NCBI GenBank assembly: GCA_008632985.1
Contig: QPGO01000032.1
Location: 1-57,644, forward strand
DNA: 57,644 nt
Direction of reading: 5' to 3'
Source of the DNA: Psammoneis japonica
Lineage: Eukaryota
Part shown: in pieces, positions 16,760 through 57,644 of the stretch
Numbering within the stretch: the first letter of the stretch is position 1
Layout of the letters: each line of letters starts with the position of its first letter
Notes under the pieces: generated by a model
Database searches by the model: none
Seen by the model: only the letters and a program-made list of their open reading frames with translations
What the model was told of the DNA's origin: nothing
Made by a program: the position numbers and the translations under genes

Positions 16760-18180
16760 CTGTTTGCACCCCACCCAAGGTTCAGATGGTGATGAATGAG
16801 TCAACATGAACATCAATGTGACCCTTGCAGTTTTCTCAAGCGTGCATGTGTTGGATCTGATCGAAGGTTGTAAATGTTTGTTCATGGCTCCTTTTTCTTC
16901 TTGCAATCGTTGCTTTTGCAATCTGGCCCAGCTCACACATTTTGAGAGTCCTTGCAACACTTGAACATTGGTCTTCTGACTGGTCACCAAAACAGTCATC
17001 ATTGAGTGCAGCAGCTTGTTCCAAATTTTGTCCATCTTGCAAAAATTTTCTCATCAGGTCATGTTTCTTTAAAGCCAGGGGCAGACTTTACTTGCTTGGG
17101 ACACTCTCAAAGACTGCAGCGCAAATGCAAAGTCATGCACGTTCTTGGCACCTGATGCTGTGGGCAGCAGATCTTTGCTGTTGCAAGTGTGAAAATTCAC
17201 TTTTTTTGAGCTCGTCTGGACACTCACATGATGGATTTTGAGCTCTTGCTGCCACTTGGTCTGAAGAAAAAAGCACACAGGATGTCATTTTTGTGCGCCA
17301 TTTAAACACTTGTGTTCAAAGAAGGGCAGGAGGCACTGTGGACAATGACACGAGATGACACAGAAGCTGCAGAGTGCAGTGTGCTGGGCATGTTTCAGGC
17401 ACATCTCTGGGGGCAGCAGCTGTTTCCAAAGAATCTTGTGGAGAACTTGCAGCAAAACATGGACAGTTTGGAGAGTTTCATTTTTGGTGCACCACGCATT
17501 TTCGTGCAGCGTGTGCACACACCACATGCAAACTTTTTTGCGCCGCTGCTCTGTCGTGCAGTTGTGACTTGAGCCATGAAACAAAGCTGAGAATTGCTCT
17601 CTCAGCCATGTGCCAATGAGCAGATGCACCCCTCCTGCTGTGCTCAACAGCACTGTGAGAGCTGCTTTTGCTCTTGCACCCAACGCATCAGAGAAGCAAT
17701 GGCGCAATCTTGCAGCAAGCATTTCTCTCAATGTGGAGCACAGAAAACTGGTGCCATTGTGAGTGTTGGGGGGTGCAAGCATGCCACACAATGCTCTGAC
17801 AAAGCAATGGCTGTGTGAAAGCCTGGGCATTGTTTGAAGTGTGCAACAGGATGCAAGCCGTGTGCATCGTGCACTCCACCAGACAAGAAACAACAGCGCC
17901 GCCATTGAGTGCACGACTCGAGCCTTGCCCCCAGCTTCTCTTGCATTGGCACACATGTTTGTGACAATGCTGTGGCAAGGCACCCACCCAAGTGAGCCAT
18001 GAGAAATCAAGAGATGCAGCACAATTCATTGTGATGAGAGAGGGCCGAGGCACTCCGGCCATCCACACAGCCTGTGTTGAGGAGGGTCGAGCAGCAAGAA
18101 CAACACAGCACAGCTGAACACACCACAAAAGTGGATGATTGTGTTTTTTCAGAAGAAGATGCACAGCCTTCCAGCAGCCT
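16760..18180. repeat. TpA/CpG-depleted degenerate repeat or TE-like block
   Basis: Only a handful of TpA, strong TG/CA enrichment, and spurious Cys/His-rich ORFs in all frames. Confidence 0.6.
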
Positions 18181-28289: not shown

Positions 28290-28499
28290 TTAAACCGTGG
28301 AAGGTCCATTCGCTGACCTAGTCTTAAAGTTCCCGACGCAAGGAAGTTGTTCGTCGATCATTGCCTGGCACACGTTAGTACGGAGTGATGGATCATCGTG
28401 AAAACATTATGGAACATCGTTGACACTTGTCGCAGAAGATTTGATTTGCTAGGTATAATTAGGATCAAGATGATGTCACATTACACGCATTTATCTTCT

Positions 28500-31855: not shown

Positions 31856-32581
31856 TCAAATCGTCTTCCTCTTCTTCATCGTCTTTGATGTTGGAGGAAA
31901 GCGCAGACGGTATGTTTGCCTTTGGCGGTCTAGGAGCTGGAATTGCAAACCCGTCGTTGCCCATGTGCTGTTTTGGTAAATAATATTATTTGTATCTTCG
32001 TCGTCCTCCTTTCGAGAATCATCCAAGTATCCCAGTAGCAACGTCCCACGAGCCTGGAAACAGATTCAGGACAACCTTATGAGGCTCTGGCAGTAGCAAA
32101 CAAAAAAAGTAAAGCCCACGTTAGTATAACTATGTACTCACCCATCGGCATTAACCCATCGATGGTACTTTTCAAAAAGTGAGGTAGCATCCCTTCCTAG
32201 ACACGGCTTGAAGATATCTTTGCCGCCCGGATGATAATGCAAATAGGGACTGATATTGTACACTTTGCCATGAAGCGAGATCCATCCATCATGAACTTTA
32301 TTATGCTTTTTGATTTCATCTCTTGTAATCTTTCTCAAACCCGCCCCTTTGCGTTGTGCCAAGTCCTTGGAGCACTTTGTGAGCGTCACCCAATCCGACA
32401 AGCCAAAACCTTTGCGTAACGCAGTCTTGTTGCGTCCTGTTGATCTACCTGCCGCTGATTTCGACTTGGCTGATACTCGTGCTGACGGCGGGAGCGTGGA
32501 ATCATTCATGAGCCTTTGGTCCTCCGCTTCCTTTTTCATGGTGCTCAGCGGTTGCTCTGGCGGTCGCTGTTTGTGCGTCAT
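31856..32581 (-). CDS. Cytochrome b5-like heme-binding protein; intron 32054-32141
   Basis: HNKVHDGWISLHGKVYNISPYLHYHPGG...GRDATSLFEKYH. Confidence 0.88.
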
Positions 32582-32699
32582 CGTGTGATACTTGCAAGTA
32601 AGTCGTTATTGTAAGGACAACAGCATGGCAAATGGCAACGCAATCATCAGCATGTAGTTATAGTCAACATCGAAAAACCACAAACCACCGTCCATCCAA

Positions 32700-34990
32700 C
32701 GTCCGTGAACGTCCGCGAAGCGAAGTTTCTCTCGCCACATTTTTGGGCCGGTGGAGCTTTTTTTTTTTCAGCACAGTGCTGCCCTGCCCTGATGCTGTGG
32801 TGGCAACTCAGCTCTCTTGATGCAAGCAGAGCAGCAAGATGCCGGACTGAGAAGGGGAGCATCAGGAAATTGTGGGGTCCAAGGAGTTGGGGGCAAGAAC
32901 ATGGCCAAAAGCAAAGATGGGCCAGCACCACATGGGAAAAAGACTGAAGCGAGAGAGGGGAGTCTGCAGCAGTCAAGTCATCCATGTGACTCCAACAGGG
33001 TGTGCCTTTTCTGTTTTTTCTTCATTTCAACCAGATGTTTGCTTCAAAACATGTCAAGTTGTGTTGACATGTTTGCCACACTGAGCCCACCTTTTTGTTT
33101 TTGAGATGTGCCACACAGACAGCGTCAGCTGAAGAGCTTCCAACACTTGTTGCAGAAGTGTGGCCTCTCATGTTTGCCTCAAAACATGTCAAGTTGTGTT
33201 GACATGTGGTGCCAGACTGAGCCTGCCTTTGAATTTCTGGCATGTGGTGCCAGATGGCATCAGTTTTTTTTTGGCACAGTTGCTCACCTTTTGCCATGGT
33301 GCCCTTTGCTGCATGTGCACACACTGTGCTGCTTGGCCAATTTCTTGACATTGCTGGGCTGAGAGGATTTCCAAGCTGCTGGCCACAGCAGTCCAGGTGG
33401 TGACTTCAAGGGATTTGAGCCTTGTGACAAAAATGGAAAATGTCATCAATTTCTTCACCTCTGTCTGTGTTTGAAAATGTGCTTGCCACGCAAGTCAAGG
33501 CTTTTGGAGTGACGCTTGTGCAGATGACTGGGGCTTTGACTTCAGTTTGTCAGTTTGCAATGTGAGCAGCTGGGGGGAGGGGGGGGGAGTGCACAGTGTA
33601 ACCTTTGCTGCTGGTGGTGACATGTGCTGCTTGGCTTCACAACAAGCAAGCATGGCTTCTTTTCACAAAAAACCACTGCAACAAGCTGCAGTTTGCAAGG
33701 GTTTGCTGCATGCAATTGCCCTGCTTCTTGTCTCCAAATTGACCTGACCACATTGCTCTTGGCTGCATTGTTCATGTTGCTGCTGTTGCGATTTGCTCAT
33801 GGCTTTGGCCACAAGTGATTGCAAGCCCTTGTTGTTTGACAAACGCTTCGCCGGCAACAACAACTGCAGCCAACTTTCATTCCATGTCTTTTCCATTGCG
33901 ATGTCAAACAAAATGCTGCAACAAGCTTCCACATCAAATGCATCACAACTCACAGCCATGCATCTGGACTTTTTTGGAGACACAAAAGGAGCTGCCCCAG
34001 CTTCCTTGAACAGTTGTTTTGTTGGCCCCTTTTTTGGCAGAGAGAACAAATGACATCAAATCTTGACATGTTGGTGCTCTTCCTCCATTTGCCCATGTGC
34101 AAGCACATTGGATGGAAAATTTCACAAGGTTGAAAGTCATTGCCTTCTGGCAGTGCAGAGATCATGACACAATGACCCCAGCCTGGCATCAGTGTGCAGC
34201 AGCATTTTCCACATGACCACCACCAATGCTGCACAAGCTCAGCTCATCCACAAGAGCAGCCACACCACACTCTCTTTTCCTCAGCATGTGGCAAAACAAA
34301 GTGGTGCTTTGCTCCTGCACATCTTTGCTTCTGCAACAGCATCATTTTGCAACAAGAGCCAAGGTGCTCTTTTGTGCAACTTGCTTGTTGTGTGGAGCCA
34401 GCTCTGCACACAAAAGGGGCAAGCACAGCCACTCGGCGGGATGTTGCCTGCTTCATTGGTGCACAGGCTCCACATGACAAGAGAATTTGTGCAGCAGATG
34501 GATTGTCAGGGCAACACACCCAAAAATGGGGTGCGAAGCTGCTGGACTGTTTGCCAACCTTGCCCTGGGAACTCAGCAGTGCTCACAACAACACATTTGA
34601 GGCCTCAGTCGGCCATGCCTGCTCAAGCCCAAATGTGTGTTGCTTTTTTCAATGGTGCAATGGGACAATTTGGGTCAGCTCCCTTTTGGAGAGCACTGCA
34701 AACATCTCTGCAGTTTCCATGCTCCAAATGAGCTTTTGGGAGTGACAGGCCAGCATCTTGGCCGGGTGTCAAAGACAGCCTGCCCCATCACATGATTGCT
34801 TTGCCATAGTTGTGACAACCAAGTGTGTGGTCTGTCTGATTGTCAAGCCAAGTCAAGCAGAAGTGTCAAGTGACACACCTCATGCCAGTTTGCAGTTTCA
34901 AGCTCTGGCAATCGCTGTTCGTGTCATCGCAGGCGTTGTCTCGGCGGTGCACCGACGTCGCACTGACAAGCTGACAACATCCACACATTT
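32700..34990. repeat. TpA/CpG-depleted degenerate repeat block containing duplicated hairpins
   Basis: About 2 TpA by eye (~33599, ~34807). The inverted repeat ACATGTCAA-gttgtg-TTGACATGT occurs twice (33047-33074, 33184-33207). Confidence 0.65.
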
Positions 34991-35343
34991 TCATGTAGAG
35001 AAAAAAGTAATAGTGATGTGATCCACGATTCAAAAGCATGCCGCTTGGAAGATGAAAGGAACAGCATTACATCCAGGCCAAGGTCGCTCCAGACACCTTA
35101 GAGGCATTTCCCCTCTACTAGAGAGAGTAGCTATTCGCCACCAAACACTAAACGCATACTTGAAAGGAGATTTCACTGATTCTCGAACAAGTCGTGCAAG
35201 CAGTTTTCGTCTCGGTCATTCCCCCCAAAACATCAAACAATCACGCGTCTGAGCAGTCTTTTCGGGTCACCCGAAGGATAAACCGGGTTTGCAAAAGAGA
35301 TCCGAGGCACAAAGTTATTGTCATAAAATCACGAAACGACGAG

Positions 35344-37227
35344 ATGGACGACATCGTGAAATCCTTAGTTTCACCAGTTGCTGCCATGCCCGGGAATTGG
35401 GCTGGCGGTTTCAGCTCAATCGTCACTGTGCTCTCCATTTTTGTGGCAGCGAGCCTCTTGTTCGCTCTGTTTTACGTATTTCGCTGTGTAAAGTTCATTG
35501 ATAGGGAAGATCAACTCGTTGTCGAAGGTCTCACGGAACAATTCATTATAAATGGACCAAAGGTGGCTTTCTTGCCGCTCCTGATCAAGTCAAGCCTTAT
35601 CAGAAAGGTGCAAACTTTGGGATCGATGGAGTACTGTGTTATCAAGAACAAAACATCGGGAGAGAAACGCGTCGAGGTTGGACCCCAAATGTTATTTCTT
35701 CGCTCCTTACGACGAGATTCTAAAAAAGAATGGATTGGAGAAGCGAAAGGCCAAGTCGCTTAAAGCCAACGAGTATGTCCGATTCGTTGATGAACAATCG
35801 GGGCGGGTACGTGTTGAAAAAGGAGAACGCGGTTGTGTCGTTCCTGGGCCCGACGAAATGTTCATGGATGGTGACAAGATGCAAGCTCTAGAGTTACGTG
35901 TGTTTGAATATGTCAAGATCATCAACAAAAGGACAGGTGCCGTGCGGACTGAACGTGGTGAGCAACTGGTCTTTCTTGGACCGTTTGAAGAATACATGGG
36001 CTCGAAGCAAACTGCCGTCGAAGTTGATCGTAAGTTTATGGATCAAATGCGTCGATTGACAAAATCATGTTTATAATCTCTACTCACATGAAATATGTTT
36101 CTGATTTTCGCAGAGGAAACTGCTGTCTTGGTAAGAAATAAGCGGACGGGCCAGCAGAATCTGGTTACAAAGAAGATGCTCTTTGTTCCTTCCAACGACG
36201 AGGAGATATTGGAAGTTCGCCCGTTGATAAAGCTTGCTGACTATGAGGCTAGCATAATCAGGGATGAGACTGGCAAGGACGTTTTCTTTTTTGGGAGTAA
36301 CGAGGAACAAAGGAGCTTCTTCTTGCCGCCACACTCGGAAATTGTGATCCTCCTGTGGTCTCGGGGGCGAAGGAGGGAACGACGGGACTTAAAAATCAAA
36401 AAGATTGATTTGCGTCCGGTATGTTATCGGTGTCTCTTTATCTATTCATCGTTGCATTACTGCTAACCACCACTACACTTCATCTAACAGATGTACATGA
36501 GCTTCGAATTCAATTGCCGTACCAACGACAACGTTGAGCTCGTTCTGGAAGGTTCTTTCTTCTGGGAAATCATCGATCTCCAGGCTATGATGAAGTTCAC
36601 CAATGACACAACCGGCGACGTGTGCAACCACGCTAGAAGCCGCTTCATTGAACTCGTCTCCAAAGTAACTCTTCAGGAGTTCATGACGCAGTTCAACAAA
36701 ATTGCCGAACAAGTTCACCGCAGCGACAACAGCGACTTCTACAAACAACGTGGAGTTAGTATCCACTCGCTGGAAGTGACGGGTTATCATTGTGCAGAAA
36801 AGTCCACAGCCCGTATCCTTGAAGAGATTATTCAAGAAACCACAATCGCATGAATCGCCTTCAGCAGCAGGAATCTGAAAACGAGGTTCAACTCAAACAG
36901 ATTCGAGGCGACATTGAAGAAGAGAAAGCCCGTGGTGAGCTTCTCGAAATCCAGACCGCTAACAGCAATGCTAAATCCAAGATGGAGGGATTGGCAGAAG
37001 CGGAACGCGTGAAAAGCTTTTTAGAAAATCTGTCCGAGAGCTTCCCTGACATGGATGATGAGACCAGAATAAGTCTCTGGCGCACGCTCCGCAAAGAAGA
37101 TGCACTCAAGGCGGTTTCTCAAGGCAATGCGAAACTCTACTTCACTCCCAAGGATGCCAATCTCAGCATTGAAAATCACGATCACGTCCATGAGAGCGGT
37201 TGGGTTGACGGTCATGACAGTCCTTGA
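35344..37227 (+). CDS. Major-vault-protein-like / SPFH (band 7) protein with an N-terminal TM helix; two introns, frameshifts
   Basis: Repeated units of the form L..xEY..I....G..RVExG...FL.PyEE, then a band-7/shoulder domain (RTNDNVELVLEGSFFWEIID) and a coiled coil. Introns at about 36030-36114 and 36419-36490. Confidence 0.7.
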
Positions 37228-41456: not shown

Positions 41457-41709
41457 GGTATACTTTCTTGCCATCGAAAGGAAGAGTGTTGCGAGAGTTG
41501 TTGCGACGCGTTGTGACACGTGTGATCGCGATGAGGCCCCATTGGCATCAGTTTCCTCGCGCGAAAATCGCGTGATAGAGAAAACTTGCCTCCGACGTCA
41601 GTCCGACGTCCGATTTCGCCGTTTCTTATATGAGTTTTTGTTTTGTTCCGGCAAAAACTTCCAATCTCTGTGGCCATGACAGGCAGCGAATAGCGGATGA
41701 CAACTTTGC

Positions 41710-43130
41710 GTGTTGATTGAAACTATTGGGGCTATAATAATGATTTGCCGCTGTTCTCATTATGGACACTTCAAGAGACTGCAGCAATGGTACCACACGC
41801 CGTCGGCTCAGGCGACAATTCTCGGCTTGGTCTTTCTACTCGTGTTTGCAGCATACTTGACGATTCAAGCTTTTGCCGCACGGACCTATGGTGATGTGTT
41901 GGCATCCAACACCACTGTAGCGCTCTATGCCGTCTTTACGGTAGCTTGTTTCATTTCTCCCAAAGTTACACTCTTGTTGGGACCTCGAAGATGCCTCGTT
42001 TATGGAATCTTGGGTTACGTCGTGTTGGTTGTAGCTTCGTTGGCGTACTTTTTGGAACTAGTCAGTCCTTCGGTTGTTATTCTTGCTGGAGCAATCAATG
42101 GAATTGGATCTGCACTCTTGTGGAATGCTCAGGGTGTCCTTATTTTACAATACTCGGACCGAGGAAGCAACGGAGGGACCCTGTTTTCCATTTTTTGGGC
42201 ATTCTTCAACGTTTCAGCCATTGTAGGAGGACTCGTTTCCTTTTTCTATTTTCATAATGATGACGAAACAAGCGGACTGACGACATTGTACGTCATCTTT
42301 TTGGGGTTTATCCTGGCGGGTGCACTCTTATCCAAACTGCTCCTTGCTCCCAACGTGCTGAATTCTGCGGGAGCAGAGTCGGAGAGTATGAACACGTCTG
42401 AGAACTCCCGCCTCGTTCCGCCAACAGAGGAAGCCTGTGTTCATTTGGAAATCAATAGCCCAAATGAAAAAGAGGACTGCAAGACACTAGACTCGTTTGG
42501 CATGCGCTCCATGACCATGCTCTTGCTTTTGTTCTTCTACACGGGTTTCAAACAGCCGTACCAACTCGTCACCTTTGGTGATCGGTACTTTAATGACGCA
42601 ACCTTGGGTTGGAGGTTGTACTGTTTTACTTTTTCAACATGTTAGGTGGAATCTTGACGGGCCGTTTATTGGACGGTGGCTTTGCAACAGTGTACAATCA
42701 TCGCTCTGTCGCCATTCACTGCTTGGCAATCTTTGTTGGGATTACGGCTCTTGGGAATCTTTCCGCCTTGTACCAAGAATGGCCATGCAAAGACGCTCAA
42801 GACGATGCGATGTGCGTCGTGGCGCTAGACTACAGACAAGGGCAGATTTGGATTCCAACCCTGGCATACATTTGTTGGGGTATCACCGACGCCGTTGTGC
42901 AGACGTATTGCTACTGGCTCATGGGTTTGAAGTGTGACTCGCAATCCAAGCAGTCCGAGGCGATTGGCTTTTACGTATGTGTACAGAGTCTTGGGTGGTG
43001 TCTTGGATTTCTTGCTCTACCGGCAAGCCGAATGAGGCCCGTTACACAGCTCATGTGCACCGTGTTTAACTTTGTTCTGGGGACGGCGATGGCACTGGCG
43101 GAGTTGCCTCGACGAACGAATCCTACATGA
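41710..43130 (+). CDS. MFS transporter, UNC-93-like; frameshift at ~42610
   Basis: About 12 hydrophobic helices. LGPRRCLVYG, GIGSALLWNAQG, GTLFSIFW. Confidence 0.82.
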
Positions 43131-43381: not shown

Positions 43382-45722
43382 TTAACGGTCCACTCTTTCG
43401 ACGTCGATACAAGCCGAACCGATACTAGGGATTCTTCTGTATGATTCCAAGACAGTCTTAGCTACGGCTTGAGCCATCTTGACGGGCACCGCATTTCCAA
43501 GCTGCCTTCTCTGCTGCTGCCTTGAGCCATAGAGGACAAAGCTGTCCGGAAAAGAAAACAACCGTGCAATTTCACGACATGTCAACTTCCTATCGAGCTT
43601 GTAATGCCACACGTCTTCGCTTGTGCAAATGGTAGTTGACGGACTGTTGCCATCAATTCGTTTGTCGTCGGTACTCATTTCCTGCTCACTGCTTTCGTGG
43701 TTGTGAACAATCCCGTTTCCCAGCTTGACAAGCCCACCGCGATGTGGAGGTGTCGTCTCCAAGTCCACCAAAGCCTGTTGAACCGTCACATGATGCTTCG
43801 GTGTTCCTGGTCCGTGGGTTTCCTGTGGTCGCTTGGGAAGAGGGAATCCAGCTTTTGCGATGAACAAGAACAACCGAAAACGCGTTTGCGGATCACCGTA
43901 GTCAGCAGCGCAAAGCTTCGTTACTCGGACCTGGTAATTCATAGCGAGCAAATCGCAAACTAGTTTGATCAAGTGTTCATGGTTCGATTCTCTAAGCATG
44001 CCCGAGACATTCTCAAAGGTAGCTGTCGTTGGCTGAAAATGTTCTACAGCTCGAGACAGACAATGGCAAAGAATATTGTTTTCTTCGCGATCGTCATCAG
44101 ACCCAAGAGTGTTTGCAATTGAGTAGCCTTGACAAGGGGAACTTGCATGTATATGGTCGGGCTCCTGAGAACGAAAAGGGACAAGGAGGTAAGCAGTGCA
44201 TCAAACAACACACAATGAAGCAGGCACTTTAGATACCTCTTGGGATGGATAGCCTGGCTGGCCATTTTCGCAATCTTCGAGAAATTCGTTCGAGTCGCGA
44301 GCGTAAGCGATTCCTCGAGTAGCAAGAGAAGCTTGTAAGTTGACGTCCTTGTCTACCATCCAGCTTGCACCGAAGCCTTCTCGCTCGAAACCGAGGCTCA
44401 TGCCGCCTACGCCTGAGAACAACTCGAGCACTACATGGATATTGAGATGGTCAGATTTCGACGACATGAACGGTAGCACTCCAAAGACTTTACTCGCTTC
44501 ACTCACCTCTGGGCTTCTGTACGGCGCACTGTTTCATTACTTCCTTATCAATTTTTGTCTCGAACGCAAAGTCAAAGTTTGACTGTCTGTGAGTTTCAGA
44601 AGTGAACTGAAAACCTGAAGGAGTGCGCTGCTCTAGTGCTTCCGCCAAATCAAAATAGTCCGGAAACGTTTGTTTACGCAAGGTTCTCGCTTCCTCAATT
44701 ACAGCAGGGTTAAGATCCTCGTCTCGAACCCACGTAAGCTGCTTGTAATCGCCTTGCCATTTTATCTTGTATTCCCATTGACCTTGACGCCGCTGTCTGC
44801 AATCAACGACTTCTTCGACTTCGTATACATCAGAATGGTCTGTAGTCAAATCGTGTCTCGTACCTTGAATATCACTCGAATCTGCAGTGTCCCAATTTGG
44901 ATTCTCTGCCTTTTCCTTCGTCTTGCGTTTCTTTGTTTTCCCGGCGCCGTCAGTGTCACTTGTATCCATAGCGTCGCGTTTTACACTCTTGCCCCTTTTG
45001 GGTTTTGGTAGTATTTTTGTTTTCCTGGTGGCTGCAGTGCCGGTTGCAGCTGCAGAGTCTCGTTTTACACTCTTGACCTTTTTGTTTGCCGCAAGCTTGC
45101 TTGTTTTCGCTGCATCCTTCTTTTCTTTCGGCGGTCGGCGTCGACGCAAGAGATGACCCTCAGTAGCCGACGAATCATGCACCTCGTCACATGGAAGAAT
45201 AGCATATTCACCGAGGACGCCTTTCCTTACACCGTCCCATCTAACAAGCACCTCGTCCGCAGCCACAACGAGGGGCAAGCGCAAGGCGGCCAAATCCACT
45301 GTAGAAGGATCGACGACAGCACAAGTATAGCCCTGTTTTGTCGTAAGCACTGCGCCGGGCGTGAAGGAACTTTTCTTAGATTTGAATTCTTGAATTGATG
45401 CAACAGCCTTGATATCTTCAATCTTTACTTTCTTTCTCTTCTTTGCTTGCTTCTTTCTTGACTTGAGAGGCTCTTGTTTGATTTTCTTTTGCTCAAACCC
45501 TAGCTTCGTTGGGGGTTGCCTCTGTCGGGACGAGCGACTGTTCAACGATGGAAGAACCACCGCACTCTCCTGTACGACATTAATTGTGTTTCTCCACGGA
45601 GCCTCTTTGTACTTGACAAGCATCTGACCAGGTTCAAGGTCATACTCCTTGTGCAAAGCAGGATCCACAGTGATAGCCGGGTGAGCACTTTCTACGAGTA
45701 CTTCAGTGCCATGATCCATCAT
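43382..45722 (-). CDS. Chromodomain-containing C5 cytosine DNA methyltransferase, RID/DNMT4-like; exons 44507-45722, 44237-44430, 43382-44164
   Basis: Chromodomain YEVEEVVD...EYKIKWQGDYKQLTWV. Motif I LELFSGVGG, IV HASSPCQGYS, VI FENVSG, VIII PQTRFR, IX RKLTCREIARL, X QLGNAVP. Introns 44431-44506 and 44165-44236 give an intact frame. Confidence 0.92.
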
Positions 45723-46029
45723 GGTGTTTCGGCTTGGCGTAAGATAGGAAAGATACTCAGCACTCCAGTAGCAGGCTTATCGGTAGTTCCCCAGTTACTA
45801 GTCACTCAATGACAGAGCGCAGAGCGCGAGATGGGAAACGCAAATTCAACCCCCGCCCTCTGACTGAGCCGCACCGTTAGCTACAACAAGGAGCGTAGCG
45901 TATCTTTTTAGTTTATGGTCCGGTCACGTAGGTAGCTCCGAGTTTATGAAAAAAAAAGAGAGGAAAAGGAGGAGGGGAGGAGAAAACGCCATACGTTCAA
46001 TTCGCACGTACGACGGACAGACGTTTTAC

Positions 46030-48090
46030 GACATTCATGCTGCTGCAACAAAAACAAACCAACCATGATGCGGCAACAACCGATGTTTGATCTTGCCACC
46101 AAACCTTTTCCTGCCAAAAATGTCAATGCATGACATCCACATTTTGCTGTGACAAGTGTGTCAATTGCAAGAGACGTGAGAGAAAACCCAAAAATGAACA
46201 ACAAAAGCTCCTTCCTGCAGCTGTGCCGCTGCCCAGACTGCACATTTTCACAACTTGCACAGCAACAGCCAATGTTCTGTTTTTGCTGCCAAACCTTTCC
46301 TGCCAAAATTGCCAATGATCAGCATGCTGTGCTGTTTCTCTTTGGCAAGTGCGCCAGCGAAAAGAGAGGCACAGCAGGAAAAAACCCAGGCAAGCGGGGC
46401 AAACGCAAAGGCCCTTTGCGCGGTTTTGCCACAAGGCTCAGGCTCTCAGCTCTCACAGCTTGTGCACTTCAATTTGAGTTTGCACTTGGCAGATTGAAGG
46501 CTGACTTTCAGCAATCAGGTGTCAGGTTCTGCTGTCACACTGTGCCTGTGAGCAGCAGCGCCAAGGTTGCTTGGCAATCCAGCAGCCAGCTCTCTGTGAA
46601 AAATGGTTGCAAAAGGAAAGGATCTGCCTGCTGCAACACAAGAGACAAGCAATCAAGAGTGCATTTTCCTGTGGTTTGGTGTCAAAGAAAATGTGCTTGT
46701 TTGTGGTGCTGTGCTGGCAAGGCCAGCTGCGAGGCACAGCCCAGCCAGCCAGCCGCCGCCAGCACAGCCAGTGGGTGCTGGCCTCCTCTCATGATGTTGG
46801 CATTGGGCCACATCATGCAGCTGTGCCACCACAGTCAAATGACATTTCTGCCAGCTCTGCATGAAAAAATGATTGCAAAAGGAAAGGAGCCATCTGCGGC
46901 GCAAGAGACAAGCAGCCGCCAAGCTCCCCCCATGGCGGCGGGCTGCTTGAAGTGCTGCAGCAGCTGTGCTCTGTGCTGGCCATCCAACAGAGATGAGTGG
47001 ACCACAATGTTGGCTGCAAGATGAAAGGACTGTGTTGGTCACAACTGGCGCCAAACAAGTGCGGGAAATTTTCCTTTCATCCGAGGGAATTTGGGGGCTG
47101 CTGAGAGAGGAGCCCCCCCCATGACCCAAAACCCCGCTCATGCTCACATCTTGATTTCCCCCTCATTGGCTTGTCAAATGAAGAAAACAATGAGGCTTTC
47201 CTCTTTTGTTTTGTTGCACAATGTGCACCAGATTTGCCACACCAATTTGAGCTTTTGTGGGCTTGCTTGGAGCAGATCACACTTGAAGAGACCATGGAAG
47301 CACATCTTTTTGTCCTTGAGAAAGTGCCTCCCAATGGTGCCTGCCTCACTCACTGAGTGCATCACACAAAAAGAGGTGTTTTGGCAGCCAAAGGCTCTGT
47401 GCAAATCAACTTCTAGATGAGTGGTTCATGATGGTTGCAACCACGCATTGAATCACTGATCTGTTTTTTCCTTTTCTCATTTTCTTGCATTTCCTTGTCT
47501 AGGAAATTCAGCGCCAAATGAGGAATTCCCTGTGATCGAAAACCTGTGACAACGCGGTGATTGGCACGCTGACAATGATTCCGTCTGTGGCGTCGCTGTC
47601 AAATTTGCACTGGAAAACCATGTGGGTTTCTGCTTGTCGCTGTCAAAATGGAATTGTGTCATTGTCAAATTCTGCACAAACCCTGGTGCATTTCCTACAC
47701 AGTTTATAAAGAGCTGCCTGCGCAGCTGGACGATTGCCGTTTCCTGCACGAGGCATCGAAAAAAATGTGGCCGCAACGTGAGCAAAGACTTCACAACACA
47801 TAATTTGCGTGTGCAGAGTTAAAGACACATTTTTCGTGCATTTAGTTGTTCAAACATGAATTTACTGTGCAAGGTTTTGGCGGGAAATTTTGTGTTAGAA
47901 TTGGTTCCTCCTTTGTGGTGGGAACTCTGGACACGAAGTGAGGAGGTGTGGAACCCGGGCTGGTTTGGATTGCCATGCGCGCGAGCATCAAATTTTAGAG
48001 CTTTGATCTTTACTTGCCACCAATCATTTTTTAAAAAATTCTCACGCTTAAATGATGGGTTCGCAATCAATCAATGTGCGACGTAATTCT
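46030..48090. repeat. TpA-depleted repeat block with internal imperfect direct repeats
   Basis: 46070-46130 resembles 46260-46320, and 46587-46652 resembles 46852-46915. Almost no TpA before ~47400. Confidence 0.6.
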
Positions 48091-48428
48091 ATGTTTATGT
48101 TTTAATGTTATGTCAAAAAATGGCGATTTAATTATTGTATAAGTGTATGGATATATTATAATAAGAGACGTGGGTTTCCCCTTCTTTTTGATAATTCTGG
48201 TGTGATCGTTCTATGGTAGATGATAAGAGAACTGTCCTGACGTTGTGTGTCACTGGTTGCTGAGTGTGTCTGTCATTGTAATAATGTGCTGACATCGATT
48301 TATTAGATTAGACCCTTTGTTTTCTATCGGTTGTTGCCGGGCACGCCTGCAAGCCCGCGCACAAAGCTTGGAACATTTTCCAAAATGTAGAAATGATTCC
48401 CACATGCAGTGTCAAAATGTTCCATGTG

Positions 48429-51400
48429 TCAATTGGACTGCAAAATGTCGTCACACTGTTCGTTGGTGAAGCATGTGACACTTTTTCCTTCCATCAACCG
48501 GAGCAGGGTGTCATGCCCGTCCGGCAGTCTGCACAGACTTAAATCTCTCTTCAGCGGTTGCCGAAGATGCAGACCATTTCTGGTCTTGACCCTGGAGAGC
48601 ATGACATGTGCCCAGTTTTGTGCACAGCTCCAGCTGTGTACAAACACATTGTGACACCGCTTCCTTGAAGCTTGTGTCCTGCAGTCGCATTGTTTGTTGT
48701 GAATGGCAATTGGGTCACTTTCAGTCCGAGCACATGTTTCTCTTTTTCCTCAGCTGTCATCTGTTGGGTTGGGTCCTTCAAACAGGCTTTGAAAGTGGAA
48801 GACTTAGGCTTGAGCAAAAAGGTGGGTGGATCGATGCTTTTGTTGCTGTGCTTGAGTTCTACATTGTCCACCTGGGATGCTGTGACACCTCGAATGGATG
48901 TTCCACAGTCCAAGACCACTTGCGATGAATGTTCTCCTGGTTTCAGCACGACTTTTGCCACAGTTGCTTGTGTTCCATTCGCAATGCCATTTGCCACATT
49001 TTCATTGCACGGGATCACAACTCTACATCCCTTGTGTGTTCGTAACACTGGATCAAGCCTGCCAGATTGCATTTCCACATCGCTCTCTCCACAGTTTTTC
49101 CAGAATGTTTTGTGCACCGGGAAAGGCCTGTGCTGTCTTGCTCCGTCACGCACTTGTAAATCGTCACTGAAAATGGCTAGAGAGTCCAAGACTTCTCCAT
49201 CTCTTTGGTGCAGTCTCTTGGTCCTTTCCTCAAACAAGGCTGTGTTGATGGAGTCTCTTTCTTTGTTTCTGCATGGTGCACATTTGATGTTCTCTGGCAG
49301 TTGCTGACCCTTTCTTGCTGCTCTTTCATTGATTTTGTCGACATCTTCGAGAGTCGCTTCGCCATCTCTAAATCGTTTTAGCAAACTGCCCCATTCTGGA
49401 TCCTCACTGAATCTGTGCATCCCATGCAACTGGATGTGGCAGTTCACCCATTCCTGGAATTCGGCACAGGTCTCCTTGTGTGGAGGGTGCATTCCGTGTC
49501 CAACTGGCTCGAGTTGTCTTAGGTCCCCTGCAAACACCATGTCCACACCCCCACAAGGCCTGTCTAAATTGGATTTCACGACAGATAGATTAGCATGTAA
49601 TTTTTCTAAATCTCTTCTGCAAGCAAATGACATTTCGTCGACAATCAGCAGACGAGTGTCACTCCAGCTTTCCATTTGTGTTTCTGTTGTTTCTTTTTTC
49701 CTGTTTGGATGGGCAACTCTGTGAATGGTGTCTCCTTTCAGAATTGTCGCTGCAACTCTGGTCATGGCAGTGACAGCAATTGTTTGTGCAGTGAATGGTC
49801 GTTCAATTAAAGAGCAACATTCTCTTGCGTGCAAAACAACAAGATCGATGACAGTGGATTTGCCACTTCCTCCTGCTCCATGCAAGAAACAAATTAACTG
49901 TGTGCCTCTTCGTTCTCGCACTTCAACTAACTTGGCTAATCTCCTGCATTCTTTGTTAAATTCGTGTCCAATTCCTCCTCTTACATTGCCACTTGCTTGT
50001 TCTCCCAGAGCGTCTTTGCAGCACGTCAAAATGAAAGTTCCTGCCATGACTTCAAAAGCACGACTTTGATGTGGGTCTAGCTTGGCTTTTTTTGACCAAT
50101 CAACTGAGCTTTTGGCTGAGCCGTCAGCTTCAAGGACATCAACGGCTTCTTCCGAATTAGTTGTGTCTTGGAAAGATCGTCGAATGCGTCCAGTCTTGGT
50201 CAGCAACACTCGAACTACATCTCGTTTCCTAATTTGAGGCATGGGTTCTTCATCTGCTTGCATGCTGTTTTCATTGTCTTCTTCATTGACCTCAATTTCT
50301 GGTGGCTCCATTGTTTCTACGACAGGGACCGAATTGATGACAGTGTTTTGATCTGAAGAAGCCATGCACATGCATGCCAAGTGCTGACATCCTGCAAGGT
50401 GACTTCCCTTCTGTCTGGTTTGTTTGCCACTTAAATTCGTGGGTGCGGCTGCTTCATCATTCGCTTCTGTCCCGTCTTCGTGTTCATGGTTCACCAATTC
50501 ATCTAGAAGAGCATCAAGCATTTGTCCTTGCAAAGCCGTTCCAATGTCGTCTTCGGTGTCGCTTTCGCACCTTGCACTAAATTCATCATCGTCCGATGCA
50601 TGCTCACGGGTGGTGCGTTTGAGAAAATCTGATGTGCTTTTTAATCGCAGACAATTGGATTTTGCATCTTGCAGATTTTGCAAGAATTTCAGATTTCTTC
50701 AGTGACGATTTCTCTCTCCACCGCTTGACGGAATGATTGCAAGCAGGTTTGATCGAACAGTCGCACATCTGAGGCAGTCCGACATGATGTGAACAAAGCA
50801 AGAGCTGGCTTGCAACATGGCTCTTTTTCAGGCAAGGATGGTGCATTGCTGTCCATGAGAGAACTGCCGAATTTTGCTGCATCTGGGAAATCACACTGGT
50901 GTGTCTTAACCAAGCGAGTGTCTTGTCTTGGTTTGATGCCTTGCAGAAATCTGTTTGATCTTCTTTGACAAGATGGATGGGTGCAGGTGGAGTTGTCGAA
51001 TTGGCAAAGAAGACCTTCATTTTTCTTGGCATTTNNNNNNNNNNNNNNNNNNNNNNNNNNNNNNNNNNNNNNNNNNNNNNNNNNNNNNNNNNNNNNNNNN
51101 NNNNNNNNNNNNNNNNNNNNNNNNNNNNNNNNNNNNNNNNNNNNNNNNNNNNNNNNNNNNNNNNNNNNNNNNNNNNNNNNNNNNNNNNNNNNNNNNNNNN
51201 NNNNNNNNNNNNNNNNNNNNNNNNNNNNNNNNNNNNNNNNNNNNNNNNNNNNNNNNNNNNNNNNNNNNNNNNNNNNNNNNNNNNNNNNNNNNNNNNNNNN
51301 NNNNNNNNNNNNNNNNNNNNNNNNNNNNNNNNNNNNNNNNNNNNNNNNNNNNNNNNNNNNNNNNNNNNNNNNNNNNNNNNNNNNNNNNNNNNNNNNNNNN

Positions 51401-54297
51401 NNNNNNNNNNNNNNNNNNNNNNNNNNNNNNNNNNNNNNNNNNNNNNNNNNNNNNNNNNNNNNNNNNNNNNNNNNNNNNNNNNNNNNNNNNNNNNNNNNNN
51501 NNNNNNNNNNNNNNNNNNNNNNNNNNNNNNNNNNNNNNNNNNNNNNNNNNNNNNNNNNNNNNNNNNNNNNNNNNNNNNNNNNNNNNNNNNNNNNNNNNNN
51601 NNNNNNNNNNNNNNNNNNNNNNNNNNNNNNNNNNNNNNNNNNNNNNNNNNNNNNNNNNNNNNNNNNNNNNNNNNNNNNNNNNNNNNNNNNNNNNNNNNNN
51701 NNNNNNNNNNNNNNNNNNNNNNNNNNNNNNNNNNNNNNNNNNNNNNNNNNNNNNNNNNNNNNNNNNNNNNNNNNNNNNNNNNNNNNNNNNNNNNNNNNNN
51801 NNNNNNNNNNNNNNNNNNNNNNNNNNNNNNNNNNNNNNNNNNNNNNNNNNNNNNNNNNNNNNNNNNNNNNNNNNNNNNNNNNNNNNNNNNNNNNNNNNNN
51901 NNNNNNNNNNNNNNNNNNNNNNNNNNNNNNNNNNNNNNNNNNNNNNNNNNNNNNNNNNNNNNNNNNNNNNNNNNNNGCCACAAACTCTGGGTTTGTCCAG
52001 TGTTTAGTGCAATGAGGGCAATGTGCGAACATGCCGTTTTTTGATTTCTGACCATGCTTGTGCCTTGGGCATCGAAGCTGCTGATCACTGACTGTTTTAG
52101 GCACAGTGCGACAGGCAAGATTGACAGTGCAATCATGATCAAAAGTCTCTGTGATGGAAAGTCGAGTGTAATCCTCGCTGCATGTCAACCCAGTTGTGCA
52201 GATCCGACTGGTCAGTTTGGATGGTGTTCTTTTACCATCACGCCTAAAATCTCTGTTGTCAGAATGCAGATTGTCTCTTGCTGTGTTCATGTCTTCAAAC
52301 CATGCCTGAATGTGACCGTGTGCCGAGAGTCTACCTTGTTCTTCCATTGCAGCCATGAAAGCGGAGGGTCTCCCCATGTAGAACTCAAAATCTTCTCTGG
52401 GTGAATTCCTTTTTAAGTCCCATCCCATTGCTTCTTCTATGACGATTTCCAACAACATTTCGAATGCAAAAGCCATGACACCCGGGTGCTCCACACGAAG
52501 CTCGTTTCTTGCCTCAGCCTTTTCGGTTGGTTCTTCATCCGACATTTCTGTCACATCTCTGCCTTTGTCGACGAGCATGTCCGTGTGAATTTGAGCTAAA
52601 AAGGAACTGGCATCATCGGGGCTTGTCGTTAAAAATGCTCCAGGTTGTCCAAAGTGGCGTTGGCAGGTTTCAGCATTTCTTCTCATTTTTTTTGCTGCTT
52701 CATTTGCATGTGGAACAGATGCCGACACCACATCCACTGCACTTAAGAAACGATGTCCCAATGCGCAATTCCTGCGTTCACCGGTCTGTCTGTCACACAT
52801 GGCACGGTCGACGTCGTCTTGTGTCAGTTCATTTGAGAATTGTCTGGCTTGATTTTTGTCTCTTGCTTTCCATCCAGCACTGTGCACCATTCGTTGCTTC
52901 ACAGTCAGATTGCACAGGGTCAGAACAAAGAGTTGCTTGTGGAAATGGGGCTGAGAAATGCGGGCCAAGTGATCTGCGCAATGTGCTAGATTTGTGCAGT
53001 CGGCGAGACTCCCGTCTTCTTTCATTCTTGTTTCATTGATGCCGCCACGCCCACAAGGAAATTGCAGCAAGCAAGCATTCACCAGGTTGTTGTCCTCAAA
53101 GTCACTGACTGATTCTTTCAAAAGATCAGCTTTGAATTCAATGTCAAAACCGCTTGCAGCTGCATCGTGCACCAAGTCTTTGAAGCTGTCTAAATTGCGT
53201 TGTCCACCAGTTGTTGAAGAAACGGTGCCATCGGGGAAATGAACACTGCAGGACTCCGTGGTTTCAACGTTTGCATTTTCGCTTTCGTCCAAACTGCTGT
53301 TGTCCACTAAAACTGGATTCTGTAAATTACTTCGCACTTCCTCTAGATCGATGTCTTGATTCATCCAATTCTCGCGGTGATGGACAAGCCATTCCAGTGC
53401 TCTCATTACACAGTGAGTCCTGATTTTGTTCTTTTGTCTGGCCATTTGCCTTTGCTCTGGTGTCATTTTGCCGGACACCAACACAACCACATTTTGATGA
53501 AGGTTCAACACGTCAAAGTGCACAATGGTGCGGGCGATGCTCTTCATGTTTATCTTGCAACAGGAAAGACTGCCTTGCAGTTTCTTCTGTTTGCCACCGA
53601 CAAAACTGAAGCAGCAGCCATGTGTTTTCACAGGTGTCAACAAAGCCAGTTCTGCTTCGGCAAGACACGATAATTCAGGTGGTGGTGTTCCAAAACAGCA
53701 ATTATTTGCCATTGCGCATGGAGGCACAGAAGTGGTGCAGAGACTCCTTTTACAAGGCCTGCAACAAGTGAATCCTTCAGACCTTCTGTTGTCGTTCGGA
53801 ACAACACATCGAGCTCTTGGCAAAAGTGACAGGTCGGAAATCCATCGGCAATCCCGTGGAATGTGGTCGTCATCAATGCGACAACAATCGTGTGGGTCTT
53901 CCGACACTTGGTTCCATTCAGATGGAGTTGACAGGTGTCTGGCTTCTTTCAATTTATTGACAGAAAGTCGAGCAGTCTGAGACGGTTTCAACAATCTGTC
54001 ACACACCAAACAAACCCAAGGGACGCACTCGTTTCCATTCCTGCAACAAAGCTTCTCAAAACGTCTGTTCACATTGTCTCGGTGCCTGGTGTTGCTGTCA
54101 TCCACAAGACAGCTTGCAACGGCAGGCTCACACTGCGCAAAGACAAGTTGAACCAACAACGCAGCAACAGGTGCACACCAGATAACACGACGACCCATGA
54201 GACTTGTGATGAGAACAATCTGAGTAAAGTCAACATGATCAACAGATGGTGGACAATCCGACCTGCAACTGGTGTTCCCAGTCACTGCAGGGTCCAC
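48429..54297 (-). pseudogene. Helitron RepHel (HUH endonuclease plus PIF1 helicase); frameshifted, with assembly gap 51035-51976
   Basis: Rep motifs PGAFLTTSP and EEQGRLSAHGH. Helicase motifs GAGGSGKS, LIVDEMS, AGDLRQLEPV, MHRF, GHKLQG, HVMLSRV. Confidence 0.92.
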
Positions 54298-55182
54298 TTC
54301 CAGTGTTTTCTGGACTCAGCAGACGAGTGTGTGTAACAAATCTTCAGCATGTCAAGAGTGCAATGAACAATGATGAATGCGACATGACAAATCTGCAACC
54401 GGTGTTTCCCGGTCTCTGCAGACTCTGCGACCAGTGCATTCTGGTCCCCGCAGATGTTGTCTCAGCTGCAACTGGTGGTGCTTTGTGTCGAGATGGCTGG
54501 AGAGTCTTCCTTTGCAAAAGTTCAGATCTCATGAAAAATGAGGGTTGAAGCAAACTTCCGTGCATGATTGACGGACCCGACACGTTGTAGATCGCTCGTC
54601 TTGATTTACTTGACACGTCATCGTTTGCTCGTGCGTTCTACATTGGGATGCACTGCTGACAGCAGCGGCATCACACCGGTGAGGTTATGAACGTCAGCGG
54701 GAACGATGTCTTGTGGAAGTTCAATGTGCGATGATGCATCTCGTAGTTGAAGTCGGTTCTACCCACTGCGACTGTACGACGTTTGTGCGACTGTGACGCC
54801 TCACACCTCGATCTGCTGCCAAGTGTAACAGATGTGTGTTGTTGCAGTGTGTCCTCATGATCGGCACGTTCCTTTCATCCCACTTGTGAATCATGTCATC
54901 TCGCAATGCATGCACTGACATTGAATCATTCGAGTGAAAAGATTCCAAATTTTAGAAAGATTTCCAGCCACACCTTTCTTTCGCACAATTTTACGTAGCC
55001 TGTCATGCTGGTCCTTCTTTCCTGCGTCTCGCAGTGGAAATTGTACGCAACATGAGTGACGTGCCCACACGACCGTTGCTGCACGACCGCTGCTGTGTCA
55101 GCTCTTCGTGGGAGCTCAGTGACTGGTGACCTTGTTTTTGGCTCACAATTTTGTGCCAATCAACAACGAAAGACTTTGTAAG

Positions 55183-56052
55183 ATGGCCCGTAAAACGCAA
55201 GGTTCTACCAAGAAGTTGGGCGCTTCTCCAACCAAGAAACAGCAGTCTCCCATCAAGTTTTCTGCTTCCCTCATGAAAAAAATTACCCCTGCCAAGACCG
55301 TTGGTCTCAATGATGAAGATGTGAAGGCCGAAGATTTGTTGGCCAAGACGGGCATCAAGGTTACGAAGGTGTCTGGTGGTGCCGCAAGCGACACTGCCAG
55401 CAAGGATGCTAATCTACGAGTGGCCAAGATCACCGAAGGCAGCAAGCAAGGCTTGGCATTCCGTTTGGAGCCCAAGGGGACAGGTGACCCCTCCGGTGTG
55501 TGGGCAGAGAAAGTGTTTTTTGATGCCATGCGCTCAGGCAAGTCTTGGGTTGCCAATTCAGGGTTTGTGCCGCACACCAAGCAGTGGCACCACAACAACG
55601 CATCGATGAAGAATGGAAGGGATTGCTCCATTCGTCTCTTCGTGATTTACGTCGAGGAGACCCCGTCCGATGAACAAGTCAAGATGTTAGCCAAGTGCAT
55701 TGCTGCCAAGTTGAACAACGACCCGGACGACAACACTGCCGTTCACATTGAGGACGACTGCATCTGGATCCAGGATGGTGTGTGGGCCGATGTGATTGGC
55801 AACGACCAGGCTTTAACGGAACTCCATAAGGAGGGTGGTGACTTCCACTTAGGATGGCATGAGCAGCACAAGAACTTGCTTCACAGTTGCCTTCGAACGG
55901 GAACCTTGACCATGGATTTCTGCCGCATGATTGGTGCTCCAGCAGACGAAGCGGCTGAGGATCTTGATGAGGAAGATGGGGTGTTGCACGATGACCAGAT
56001 GTCTGATGACGAGGAGAACGACTTGCTGCTTTGCGACAGCGACGAGAACTGA
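55183..56052 (+). CDS. Unknown protein, divergent from RepHel; probable Helitron accessory or captured gene
   Basis: Open 289-aa frame with a Lys-rich N-terminus and acidic tail, inside the TpA-depleted domain. Only one Tyr. Confidence 0.55.
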   Translation: MARKTQGSTKKLGASPTKKQQSPIKFSASLMKKITPAKTVGLNDEDVKAEDLLAKTGIKVTKVSGGAASDTASKDANLRVAKITEGSKQGLAFRLEPKGTGDPSGVWAEKVFFDAMRSGKSWVANSGFVPHTKQWHHNNASMKNGRDCSIRLFVIYVEETPSDEQVKMLAKCIAAKLNNDPDDNTAVHIEDDCIWIQDGVWADVIGNDQALTELHKEGGDFHLGWHEQHKNLLHSCLRTGTLTMDFCRMIGAPADEAAEDLDEEDGVLHDDQMSDDEENDLLLCDSDEN

Positions 56053-56463
56053 GACATTTTTCCCCGGTCTGGCCTCCGCTCTTTAGTGCGCAGTGCAGCA
56101 TGTAAATGTTTAGTCCATTTGGTCAAACATTTTTTTTATTTACTTGGCAAGCAAGACTTGCATTGCGTGCGACTGTGGCAAATCGTGCACATTTAAATTA
56201 TGCACTTAGCAGTCATTGAATGCTGCATTCGTAGCCGGCTCGTTTTCTGCATGATTTCAAAATCAATTGGCACTCGTGTCTCAATTGTTGTGCACATCTC
56301 TTTTCTGACAGTGATTTCAAAATGTCATGTGTTTGGCCTGCCTGACTTGCATTTCCGGTTGTTTCCGCAAAGTCTGCTTTTCAAACTTTGTGCCAGTGCA
56401 CAATTCACCAAATGAGACTGAGTTGCCAATGCACGGCCTCAGCATGGCAGTGAGCCAGTGATG

Positions 56464-56750
56464 AAGCCATCCCACTAAGAGACCCAGCCCGGTGTTCACA
56501 CCTCAGACCCATCTCCTCTGGAGACCAGTCCACTGTGGCACCAGTGTCGCGGCCAATCTCATTGGGTCACTTTTTGCTGCTCCTTGCNNNNNNNNNNNNN
56601 NNNNNNNNNNNNNNNNNNNNNNNNNNNNNNNNNNNAGCCATCCCACTAAGAGACCCAGCCCGGCATTCATGCCTCAGACCCATCTCCTCTGGAGACCAGT
56701 CCACTGTGGCACCAGTGTTGTGGTTGATCTCATTGGGTCACATTCTGCTG
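56464..56750. repeat. Direct repeat, two copies of about 115 bp flanking an N gap
   Basis: agccatcccactaagagacccagcccgg...ctcattgggtcac occurs twice. Confidence 0.85.
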
Positions 56751-57038
56751 GTGCTTGGTGGTCACAGGGTGCAGTTGGCAATTGCAGGGTGCAGGGCACA
56801 GCAAATGCAGGGTGCGGCAAGAACCGCACAACTCACCGGTGCCATGAAAATGTGATGCATCAACACGGCAAGGGACACTGATGAAGTGGTCCCACACAAG
56901 GACCCAGCACACTGTGCCTTTCCCTGTCACATGTGTTTTGAGTGTGCAGTGGCATTGCTGCATGCTGCAGTTGTGGCCGTTGCTGCCGGAGGCTGGGAAA
57001 ATTTTCTTTTTTTTTGAACAAATCCCCCCAACATGTGA

Positions 57039-57290
57039 CACGTGCAAATCCTGCATGTCGTTCCTCACAACCCCTGTCAATGGCTCACTCGTTCGTGTGT
57101 GCAACACATGTGCGGAGTGCAACAGGGAAAAGATTCCTCTGTACGGTGCACAGCACAGCACTGGTTTAACATGTGATGCAGTGCTGCACTGCACGTGCAA
57201 ATCCTGCAGGTCGTTCCTCACAACCCCTGTCAATGGCTTGTTCGTTCGTGTGTGCAACACACACACGGAGTGCAACAGGGAAAAGATTCA
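57039..57290. repeat. Direct repeat, two copies of about 100 bp
   Basis: cacgtgcaaatcctgca...gcaacagggaaaagattc at ~57039 and ~57192. Confidence 0.9.
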
Positions 57291-57644
57291 TGCGGTGAAC
57301 CACAGCATTGGTTGATGCACGACACTGGATGAAAAAAAAATGGCACCACAAGATGTGCCATGAGTCACCCCAATCAGTCCGGCAAAGACAATGCCACCCT
57401 TGCGTCGCTTGGGAAAATGGTCGCTGTGAAAACAAGCTCCAATTGTGGGGGCAGCTTCATTCACACCTACAAGGCTCAGACGCCTTCTTCGTCGAGAGTT
57501 GCGGCACTGGCACATTTGATAAACAGAGAACCCGTAGCTAACGAAGGCAAGTGGTCTGCTGAAAAGATGATGCATCGAGCCAACAAAAAGGCTGCAAAGA
57601 TCGAAAGTCTAGAAGAACTGCCTGCACAGCTTGCGCGTCATTTC

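Follow-up and report, generated by a model that had tools for sequence, protein, structure and literature searches.

An intact predicted gene for a chromodomain-bearing DNMT4-type cytosine methyltransferase in the diatom Psammoneis japonica

Contig QPGO01000032.1 of the Psammoneis japonica assembly GCA_008632985.1 is a stretch of 57,644 nt (the window; all positions are in its numbering) in which genic DNA alternates with tracts depleted in the dinucleotides TpA and CpG. On the minus strand, at 45722..43382, lies a gene that predicts a cytosine-5 DNA methyltransferase (C5-MTase) preceded by a chromodomain, and the 5′-end of the gene adjoins the last of the depleted tracts. The locus raises the questions of whether this gene is intact, to which family of methyltransferases its product belongs, and whether the enzyme has any part in the mutation of the repeats beside it. 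The answer favoured here, to which a probability of roughly 0.6 is given, is an intact nuclear gene for a DNMT4-type C5-MTase of the diatom clade, with a chromodomain of the HP1/CDY type about 65 amino acids (aa) upstream of the catalytic domain.

From the first ATG to the stop codon (43382..43384, minus strand, as are all features of the gene) the whole gene occupies exactly 43382..45722, and its three exons are joined across two introns of 76 and 72 nt, both with GT-AG boundaries. Exon 1 (44507..45722) lies within an open reading frame of 44499..45776, encodes aa 1-405 and the first base of codon 406, and ends at the donor site AG/GTGAGT at 44507/44506. If the 76 nt intron 1 (44431..44506, GTGAGT...TAG) is left unspliced, the frame of exon 1 meets a TGA at 44501..44499. 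Exon 2 (44237..44430), which was placed by splice signals and a Pfam match, supplies aa 406-470 including motif I, and its frame, read on into the 72 nt intron 2 (44165..44236, GTATCT...CAG), meets a stop at 44201..44203. Exon 3 (43385..44164) encodes aa 471-730 with motifs IV to X and matches PF00145 with an E-value of 4.6e-36. Without splicing, every exon frame ends at a stop, and the exons joined by script give a coding sequence of 2193 nt that predicts 730 aa plus the stop codon and contains no internal stops.

A profile hidden Markov model (HMM) of the family described below, made from 126 training relatives with the window protein left out, matches the spliced product in one contiguous alignment (HMM positions 4-323, aa 402-715, 382.8 bits) that spans both junctions. 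The spacing between YP and HIH across intron 2 is six residues, the same as in the family consensus. The frame had been described in the first-pass annotation as intact after removal of two introns, and the 730 aa product, the canonical splice sites and the contiguous match to the family bear this out. The gene is real and intact as predicted from its sequence and homology.

Whether it might nevertheless be a silent or decaying copy, either unexpressed or a methyltransferase gene that travels with a mobile element, can be judged from the same data. A Helitron-like element is found 3 kb upstream, and no relative of more than 48% identity is present among the 1.84 billion representative sequences searched, both of which would fit such a copy. 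However, the 730 aa frame, assembled from three exons at canonical splice sites, is free of stops, the score on the family profile is typical of the family, and a host-like UNC-93 gene lies on the 3′ side. The composition of the gene is also genic, with an observed/expected ratio (O/E) of 0.52 for TpA and 1.00 for CpG, clearly unlike the adjoining mutated repeats. A silent or decaying copy is therefore improbable.

The C5-MTase domain (aa 402-715, 43430..44519, split by both introns) was recognised both by Pfam and by the family HMM. Both exon 2 (24 bits, E 3.1e-5) and exon 3 (125.3 bits) exceed the cut-off of 22 bits for PF00145 (DNA_methylase). A motif scan found all six of the C5-MTase motifs checked, and in order. 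These are motif I, FSGVGG, for binding of S-adenosylmethionine, at aa 410 (44402..44419); motif IV, PCQ, at aa 480 (44129..44137), with the catalytic C481 in the context HIHASSPCQ; motif VI, ENV, at aa 521-523 (44006..44014), which has the canonical form and not the EQT/EET of RID; motif VIII, QTRFR, at aa 563 (43874..43888); motif IX, REIAR, at aa 667 (43562..43576); and motif X, GNAVP, at aa 693 (43484..43498). A full C5-MTase domain, as originally annotated, is confirmed by PF00145 together with the six motifs. The histidine reported ahead of motif IV is also present, though as a family-wide feature: the commonest form of this motif in the diatom family is HIHASPPCQG, compared with VLVGGPPCQG in the bacterial matches. 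Motif VI is ENV in all eight of the commonest family forms listed. A literature search for the motif IV string SPPCQ gave no match. The target recognition domain (TRD), measured crudely by regular expression as the interval between motifs VIII and IX, is 99 aa, against a family median of 101 aa, 217 aa in the CMT3-like anchor P0394 and 191 aa in a MET1-like anchor.

The nearest sequences of solved structure are DNA enzymes, namely chains named DNMT1 (E 3.6e-17) and then HaeIII and HhaI. Chains 4fsx and 7ubu, which match at an E-value of about 2e-15 and whose entries are titled 'DNA (cytosine-5)-methyltransferase 1', are taken by us to be of the ZMET2/CMT type. Chains of DNMT3 and DNMT5, which are presumably present in the PDB, were absent among the matches at E ≤ 1e-3, and DNMT2 and tRNA methyltransferases came near the threshold (E 7e-4).

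A further alternative is that the methyltransferase fold has been kept but does not methylate DNA, the substrate being RNA as for DNMT2, or the protein serving as a regulator that binds chromatin. For RID-like enzymes, action on RNA has been suggested as a hypothesis (Grognet et al. 2019, PMC6709928; this paper and the next are cited throughout from the portions of text and data available), and the function of diatom DNMT4 is stated to be unknown (Hoguin et al. 2023, Commun Biol, PMC9998398). In Phaeodactylum tricornutum, which has no DNMT4, methylation is lost when DNMT5a alone is removed (Hoguin et al. 2023). Set against this are the six canonical DNA C5-MTase motifs and the rank order of the solved relatives, in which DNA enzymes stand at E 3.6e-17 and the RNA enzymes only at E 7e-4. 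This alternative is considered unlikely, and methylation of DNA is the activity assumed below.

The family to which the catalytic domain belongs was delimited by a HMMER scan of the 1.84 billion representatives, which returned 149 proteins at E ≤ 1e-30. Nearly all of these are proteins of 200-1500 aa with the methyltransferase domain at the C-terminus, and the best share 46-48% identity with the window protein. Word-index searches with exon 3 found at best 38% identity among proteins of near lengths and 44% among those of longer lengths. A third word-index search, with profile A1, covered proteins of 764-2180 aa, a range above the class of 700-760 aa expected for Thaps3_11011 and Fracy1_250079. 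Only partial matches, of 26-41% identity, were found in JGI metagenome contigs. Most members of the family are unnamed, and those with names all come from diatoms, namely Amphora, Cylindrotheca, a metagenome-assembled genome of Bacillariaceae, Skeletonema menzelii, S. marinoi, Seminavis and Thalassiosira profunda.

On the family HMM, the 382.8 bits of the window protein compare with 273-456 bits (median 396) for the 126 training members and with 391 and 354 bits for held-out sequences from Skeletonema and Seminavis, respectively. Bacterial enzymes reach up to about 240 bits, and anchors of the DNMT1/MET1, CMT3 and DIM-2 types score 108-152 bits. A neighbour-joining (NJ) tree was built with Kimura distances from 373 domains and 305 columns of an HMM-guided alignment, with 100 bootstraps. 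In this tree the sister of the window protein is P0236, and both belong to a 10-member group that includes sequences from Seminavis, T. profunda and S. marinoi. The first sister group of the window protein consists entirely of family members in 88 of the 100 bootstraps, and the 134-member family is recovered as a split in 69. The next group out is formed by 12 eukaryotic DNMT1/CMT/DIM-2 anchors (43/100), in agreement with the published but poorly supported group of DNMT4 and DNMT1 (Hoguin et al. 2023). A MAFFT-based NJ tree had the window protein as the earliest branch, sister to 127 other members, but with support of 11/100; this placement was rejected, as the HMM-guided tree places the protein inside the family. 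Bacterial Dcm-type enzymes outscore the eukaryotic anchors on the diatom profile (∼240 versus 108-152 bits), yet it is the anchors that the NJ tree puts nearest (43/100).

Judged by its predicted sequence, the catalytic domain is typical of the diatom family and belongs to it. Membership in diatom DNMT4 is indicated by the profile score and the NJ tree, and the connection to the literature is made through the architecture and through the named relatives from S. marinoi and S. menzelii, in both of which DNMT4 has been listed, the criterion for DNMT4 being a reciprocal best hit to Thaps3_11011 (Hoguin et al. 2023). A DNMT4-like enzyme with homologues in diatoms had been proposed at the outset, and the proposal holds in the sense of the diatom clade to which the literature gives that name.

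The second defining part of the protein is the chromodomain, for which a fold of the HP1/CDY type is predicted with confidence. Pfam places it at aa 300-342 and the modelled fold extends to about aa 365 (44628..44825), leaving about 65 aa before motif I and the catalytic domain. The Pfam model Chromo (PF00385) matches with an E-value of 2.4e-5 and 24.6 bits, against a curated cut-off of 25.1. When PDB sequences were searched with phmmer, CDYL2 was the top match (E 3.6e-7, 33 bits), followed by CDY, Chp1 and HP1. In an AlphaFold2 (AF2) model of the single sequence, aa 301-360 are the sole confident part, with block values of the predicted local distance difference test (pLDDT) of 74-88, and consist of three strands (302-310, 316-322 and 329-333) and then helices, the first of which starts at 339. 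Every match listed by Foldseek is a methyl-lysine-reading chromodomain, with target-normalised template modelling scores mostly of 0.5-0.73; the E-values are modest (3e-3 at best) because the query was a largely disordered model of 405 aa. An Atlas feature search with the whole of exon 1 returned weak chromodomain-like clusters (0.84). In the comparison with CDYL2, at what we take to be the aromatic-cage positions, the Y of VYEVE and the W of KIKW align, and the third position reads D-Y against the Y-G of CDYL2. The chromodomain reported from the first inspection is thus upheld by Pfam, the CDYL2 match, the AF2 fold and Foldseek.

Its position ahead of the catalytic domain (aa 300-342, with motif I at aa 410) is likewise as first described and distinguishes the protein from the plant enzymes CMT3 and ZMET2, which also combine a chromodomain with a C5-MTase in one polypeptide and are the likely working analogy. 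In the CMT3-like anchor P0394, Chromo (408-461) is inserted between the piece with motif I and the rest of PF00145, with a BAH domain ahead, and the window protein has neither arrangement. P0394 also differs in the longer TRD given above (217 versus 99 aa) and scores 108 bits on the family HMM. Bacterial Dcm-type C5-MTases are the best scorers outside the family (30-38% identity, E down to 1e-24 to 1e-33, up to ∼240 bits) and share the compact domain and short TRD. However, they are without introns, chromodomain and the long basic N-terminus, and carry GGPPCQ in motif IV in place of HASxPCQ.

The closest counterparts in overall architecture are the published DNMT4 proteins of diatoms. DNMT4 was reported in 31 of 60 diatom species, and nine of these proteins, for example those of Thalassiosira miniscula and Fragilariopsis kerguelensis, have an N-terminal chromodomain (Hoguin et al. 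2023). Like them, the window protein has a C-terminal methyltransferase of ∼310 aa, a long N-terminal extension and a chromodomain ahead of motif I; like the diatom family in general, it has H-x-H-x-S-x-PCQ in motif IV and ENV in motif VI, and it falls in the same family by profile and NJ tree. In complete DNMT4 proteins the methyltransferase starts mostly at residues 268-586 (Hoguin et al. 2023), a range that accommodates the start near aa 402 of 730 found here, whereas in the 30 of 74 DNMT6 rows that were listed it starts at residues 8-229, which the window protein does not fit.

The spacing of the two domains is where the window protein departs from these relatives. About 65 aa separate the chromodomain from the methyltransferase, the shortest distance among the 14 chromodomain-bearing proteins compared: the nine published rows have 205-312 aa, and four chromodomain-bearing relatives from the database have 198-381 aa. 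These four relatives group together, apart from the window protein, in all 100 bootstraps of the NJ tree. The window chromodomain also scores at most 23 bits against the chromodomains of these four, versus 33 bits against human CDYL2. This hints that a chromodomain may have been fused to DNMT4 separately, a second time, in this lineage, with the proviso that the deep nodes of the NJ tree are weak. The architecture as such is already described, in the nine rows of Hoguin et al. (2023), and what is new is a further member with an unusually compact arrangement.

The rest of the N-terminal region consists of two hydrophobic blocks and two basic linkers, distinguished by composition. Block 1 (aa 1-60, 45543..45722) and block 2 (aa 120-185, 45168..45365) contain 36-37% hydrophobic residues. 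Linker 1 (aa 61-119, 45366..45542) and linker 2 (aa 186-296, 44835..45167) are rich in lysine and arginine, which together make up 36% and 28% of residues, respectively. The single Lys-rich linker of the first-pass annotation is therefore borne out as two basic linkers, but the two Tudor/PWWP-like segments that it placed in the blocks are unsupported. In Pfam, exon 1 as a whole (E ≤ 1) had no match to Tudor, PWWP or Agenet, and neither had the two blocks by themselves when the threshold was relaxed to E ≤ 10, for which DUF6982 (E 0.13) was the sole match. The two blocks are also mutually dissimilar (local alignment z 0.05), hhalign of the N-terminus with the PF21743 Tudor segments of the family members P0269 and P0318 gave a probability of 0.15%, and an Atlas feature search with aa 1-205 returned no usable match. 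Structure prediction of the N-terminus was productive for the chromodomain (aa 301-360) only, as the pLDDT is <50 across nearly all of both blocks, a value that is uninformative in single-sequence mode. Since no close relatives were found, no alignment of the N-terminus could be made, and both AF2 models are of single sequences. The first 296 aa, and the stretch immediately preceding the methyltransferase, have no match in any other member of the family.

Tudor domains do occur elsewhere in the family. P0269 (761 aa, from Thalassiosira profunda) has a Tudor domain (PF21743) with the methyltransferase, and P0318 (1047 aa) has a Tudor domain (PF21743), Chromo and the methyltransferase, with a second Tudor-like copy detected by phmmer. 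An architecture of Tudor, chromodomain and methyltransferase therefore does exist in the family, as seen in P0318. The PF21743 domain of P0318 and P0269 is a PTM/DIR17-like Tudor domain. In the available part of Hoguin et al. (2023), the term "Tudor" is applied to DNMT5b and UHRF1 alone, and the 56 rows for the DNMT4 family in Data 4 list no Tudor domain. Other N-terminal modules also occur: P0122 carries four HA domains (PF03457), P0282 (1779 aa) has ankyrin repeats, and P0197, P0219 and P0225 each have a Top1-type zinc ribbon. N-terminal modules seem to be freely swapped in this family.

A resemblance to fungal RID/Masc1 was also proposed in the first-pass annotation, and it stands in part. 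The Masc1/RID group is defined by a motif VI that reads EQT/EET and by a short TRD (about 80 aa; Grognet et al. 2019), and a BAH domain is listed in 14 of the 18 RID rows of Data 4 in Hoguin et al. (2023). Compared by these published hallmarks, the window protein shares with RID/Masc1/DmtA the short TRD (99 versus about 80 aa) and the grouping of diatom DNMT4 with RID/DmtA in published trees, which has moderate support and may be paraphyletic (Hoguin et al. 2023). It differs in having ENV in place of EQT/EET and a chromodomain instead of BAH (PF01426), for which there is no Pfam match at E ≤ 1. Two of the three testable hallmarks are thus absent, and the likeness is confined to the TRD.

The composition of the surrounding DNA bears on the same issue. 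In 2-kb bins, tracts depleted in TpA and CpG occupy positions 1-2000, 16001-18000, 28001-30000, 32001-36000 and 46001-57644. Both losses occur in the same tracts, where O/E is 0.10-0.35 for TpA, 0.30-0.74 for CpG and 1.5-1.7 for TG/CA, compared with 0.5-0.7, 0.9-1.1 and 1.05-1.26, respectively, in genic parts. Just upstream of the 5′-end of the gene, the short motif ccaaacctttcctgccaaaa and variants of it are repeated within the TpA-depleted DNA at 46000-46400. The last tract (46-57.6 kb), which the 5′-end of the gene adjoins, includes the Helitron-like element (48551-50698 and 52100-54315, minus strand, with a gap of Ns at 51035-51976), which lies about 3 kb upstream of the gene. Its frames predict a PIF1 helicase, Helitron_like_N and DUF6570, with a TpA O/E of 0.16-0.20. 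On the other side, an UNC-93-like gene (41701-43130, plus strand) is convergent with the methyltransferase gene, with ∼250 bp between the two stop codons, and is made up of two overlapping frames with an intron or a frame change near 42600-42645. Capture of the methyltransferase gene by a mobile element was considered and rejected on its genic composition and the flanking genes.

Could the enzyme then act in the manner of RID, recognising or marking repeats, perhaps premeiotically, and so directing a hypermutation that is restricted to repeats? The published grouping with RID/DmtA, the short TRD (99 aa, family median 101, RID about 80) and the contact of the gene with a tract depleted in both TpA and CpG would all be in keeping with this. 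However, contact with a tract means little, for ∼40% of the window is depleted and adjacency is expected by chance; that the position may be coincidence had been allowed for from the start. More directly, the dominant change, from TpA to TpG/CpA, converts A:T to G:C, which neither methylation nor deamination of cytosine can yield, and TpA loss therefore cannot be brought about by a cytosine methyltransferase. A single paper on the TpA-loss signature was found (Mettrop et al., bioRxiv 10.64898/2026.01.13.699255); its proposal is an ADAT2-like adenosine deaminase, and in the portion available it does not mention a methyltransferase. With motif VI of the ENV form here and in the commonest family forms, the absence of BAH and the possible paraphyly of the RID-diatom group, a RID-like role is judged very improbable. 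The initial suggestion that the enzyme is a candidate marker of the mutated repeats finds no support, given a dominant signature that is A:T to G:C and a published proposal that invokes an adenosine deaminase.

The function most likely for a DNMT4-type enzyme with a chromodomain is cytosine methylation of silent DNA guided by a histone mark, where the activity, the mark and the target would be those suggested by analogy. By comparison with CMT3/ZMET2 and other chromodomain readers, the chromodomain would bind a methylated lysine of histone H3 (H3K9me or H3K27me) on silent chromatin, and, once bound, would anchor the catalytic domain at such sites, allowing it to methylate cytosines of transposon-rich DNA. 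The basic linkers probably serve in nuclear import or in unspecific contact with DNA. Deamination of 5-methylcytosine leads to loss of CpG, and methylation of this kind could add to the CpG decay of neighbouring repeats, but not to the loss of TpA.

Several points weigh against this interpretation and against parts of the gene assignment. Exon structure and expression are predictions from the genomic sequence, the Chromo score lies slightly under the curated Pfam cut-off, and, since the third cage position is offset by one residue, binding of methyl-lysine is not assured. For the first 296 aa the searches detected no relatives, and the models gave no confident fold. For diatom DNMT4 as a whole, two of four diatoms with methylated transposable elements are without DNMT4, and, as noted above, its function is stated to be unknown (Hoguin et al. 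2023).

A bolder combination can be imagined, in which the chromodomain-DNMT4 delimits the hypermutated domains by reading a heterochromatin mark, methylating the DNA, driving CpG decay and licensing a separate, adenine-directed mutator of TpA. If true, a diatom would possess a two-enzyme genome defence resembling RIP (repeat-induced point mutation), with a relative of the fungal RIP enzyme at its centre; this combination is highly improbable, and the reading retained is that of an intact gene for a diatom DNMT4-type enzyme with a chromodomain.

For now, the gene counts as an ordinary member of a family that has already been described. Among the DNA methyltransferases of diatoms, only the chromodomain-bearing DNMT4s point to a direct link between a histone mark and DNA methylation (Hoguin et al. 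2023). The defined exons and the shortest spacing between chromodomain and catalytic domain among the 14 proteins compared would make this one well suited as a construct for assays of peptide binding and of activity. As the repeats of the genome show combined loss of TpA and CpG, loss of the gene could separate CpG decay that is driven by methylation from the still unexplained TpA mutator.

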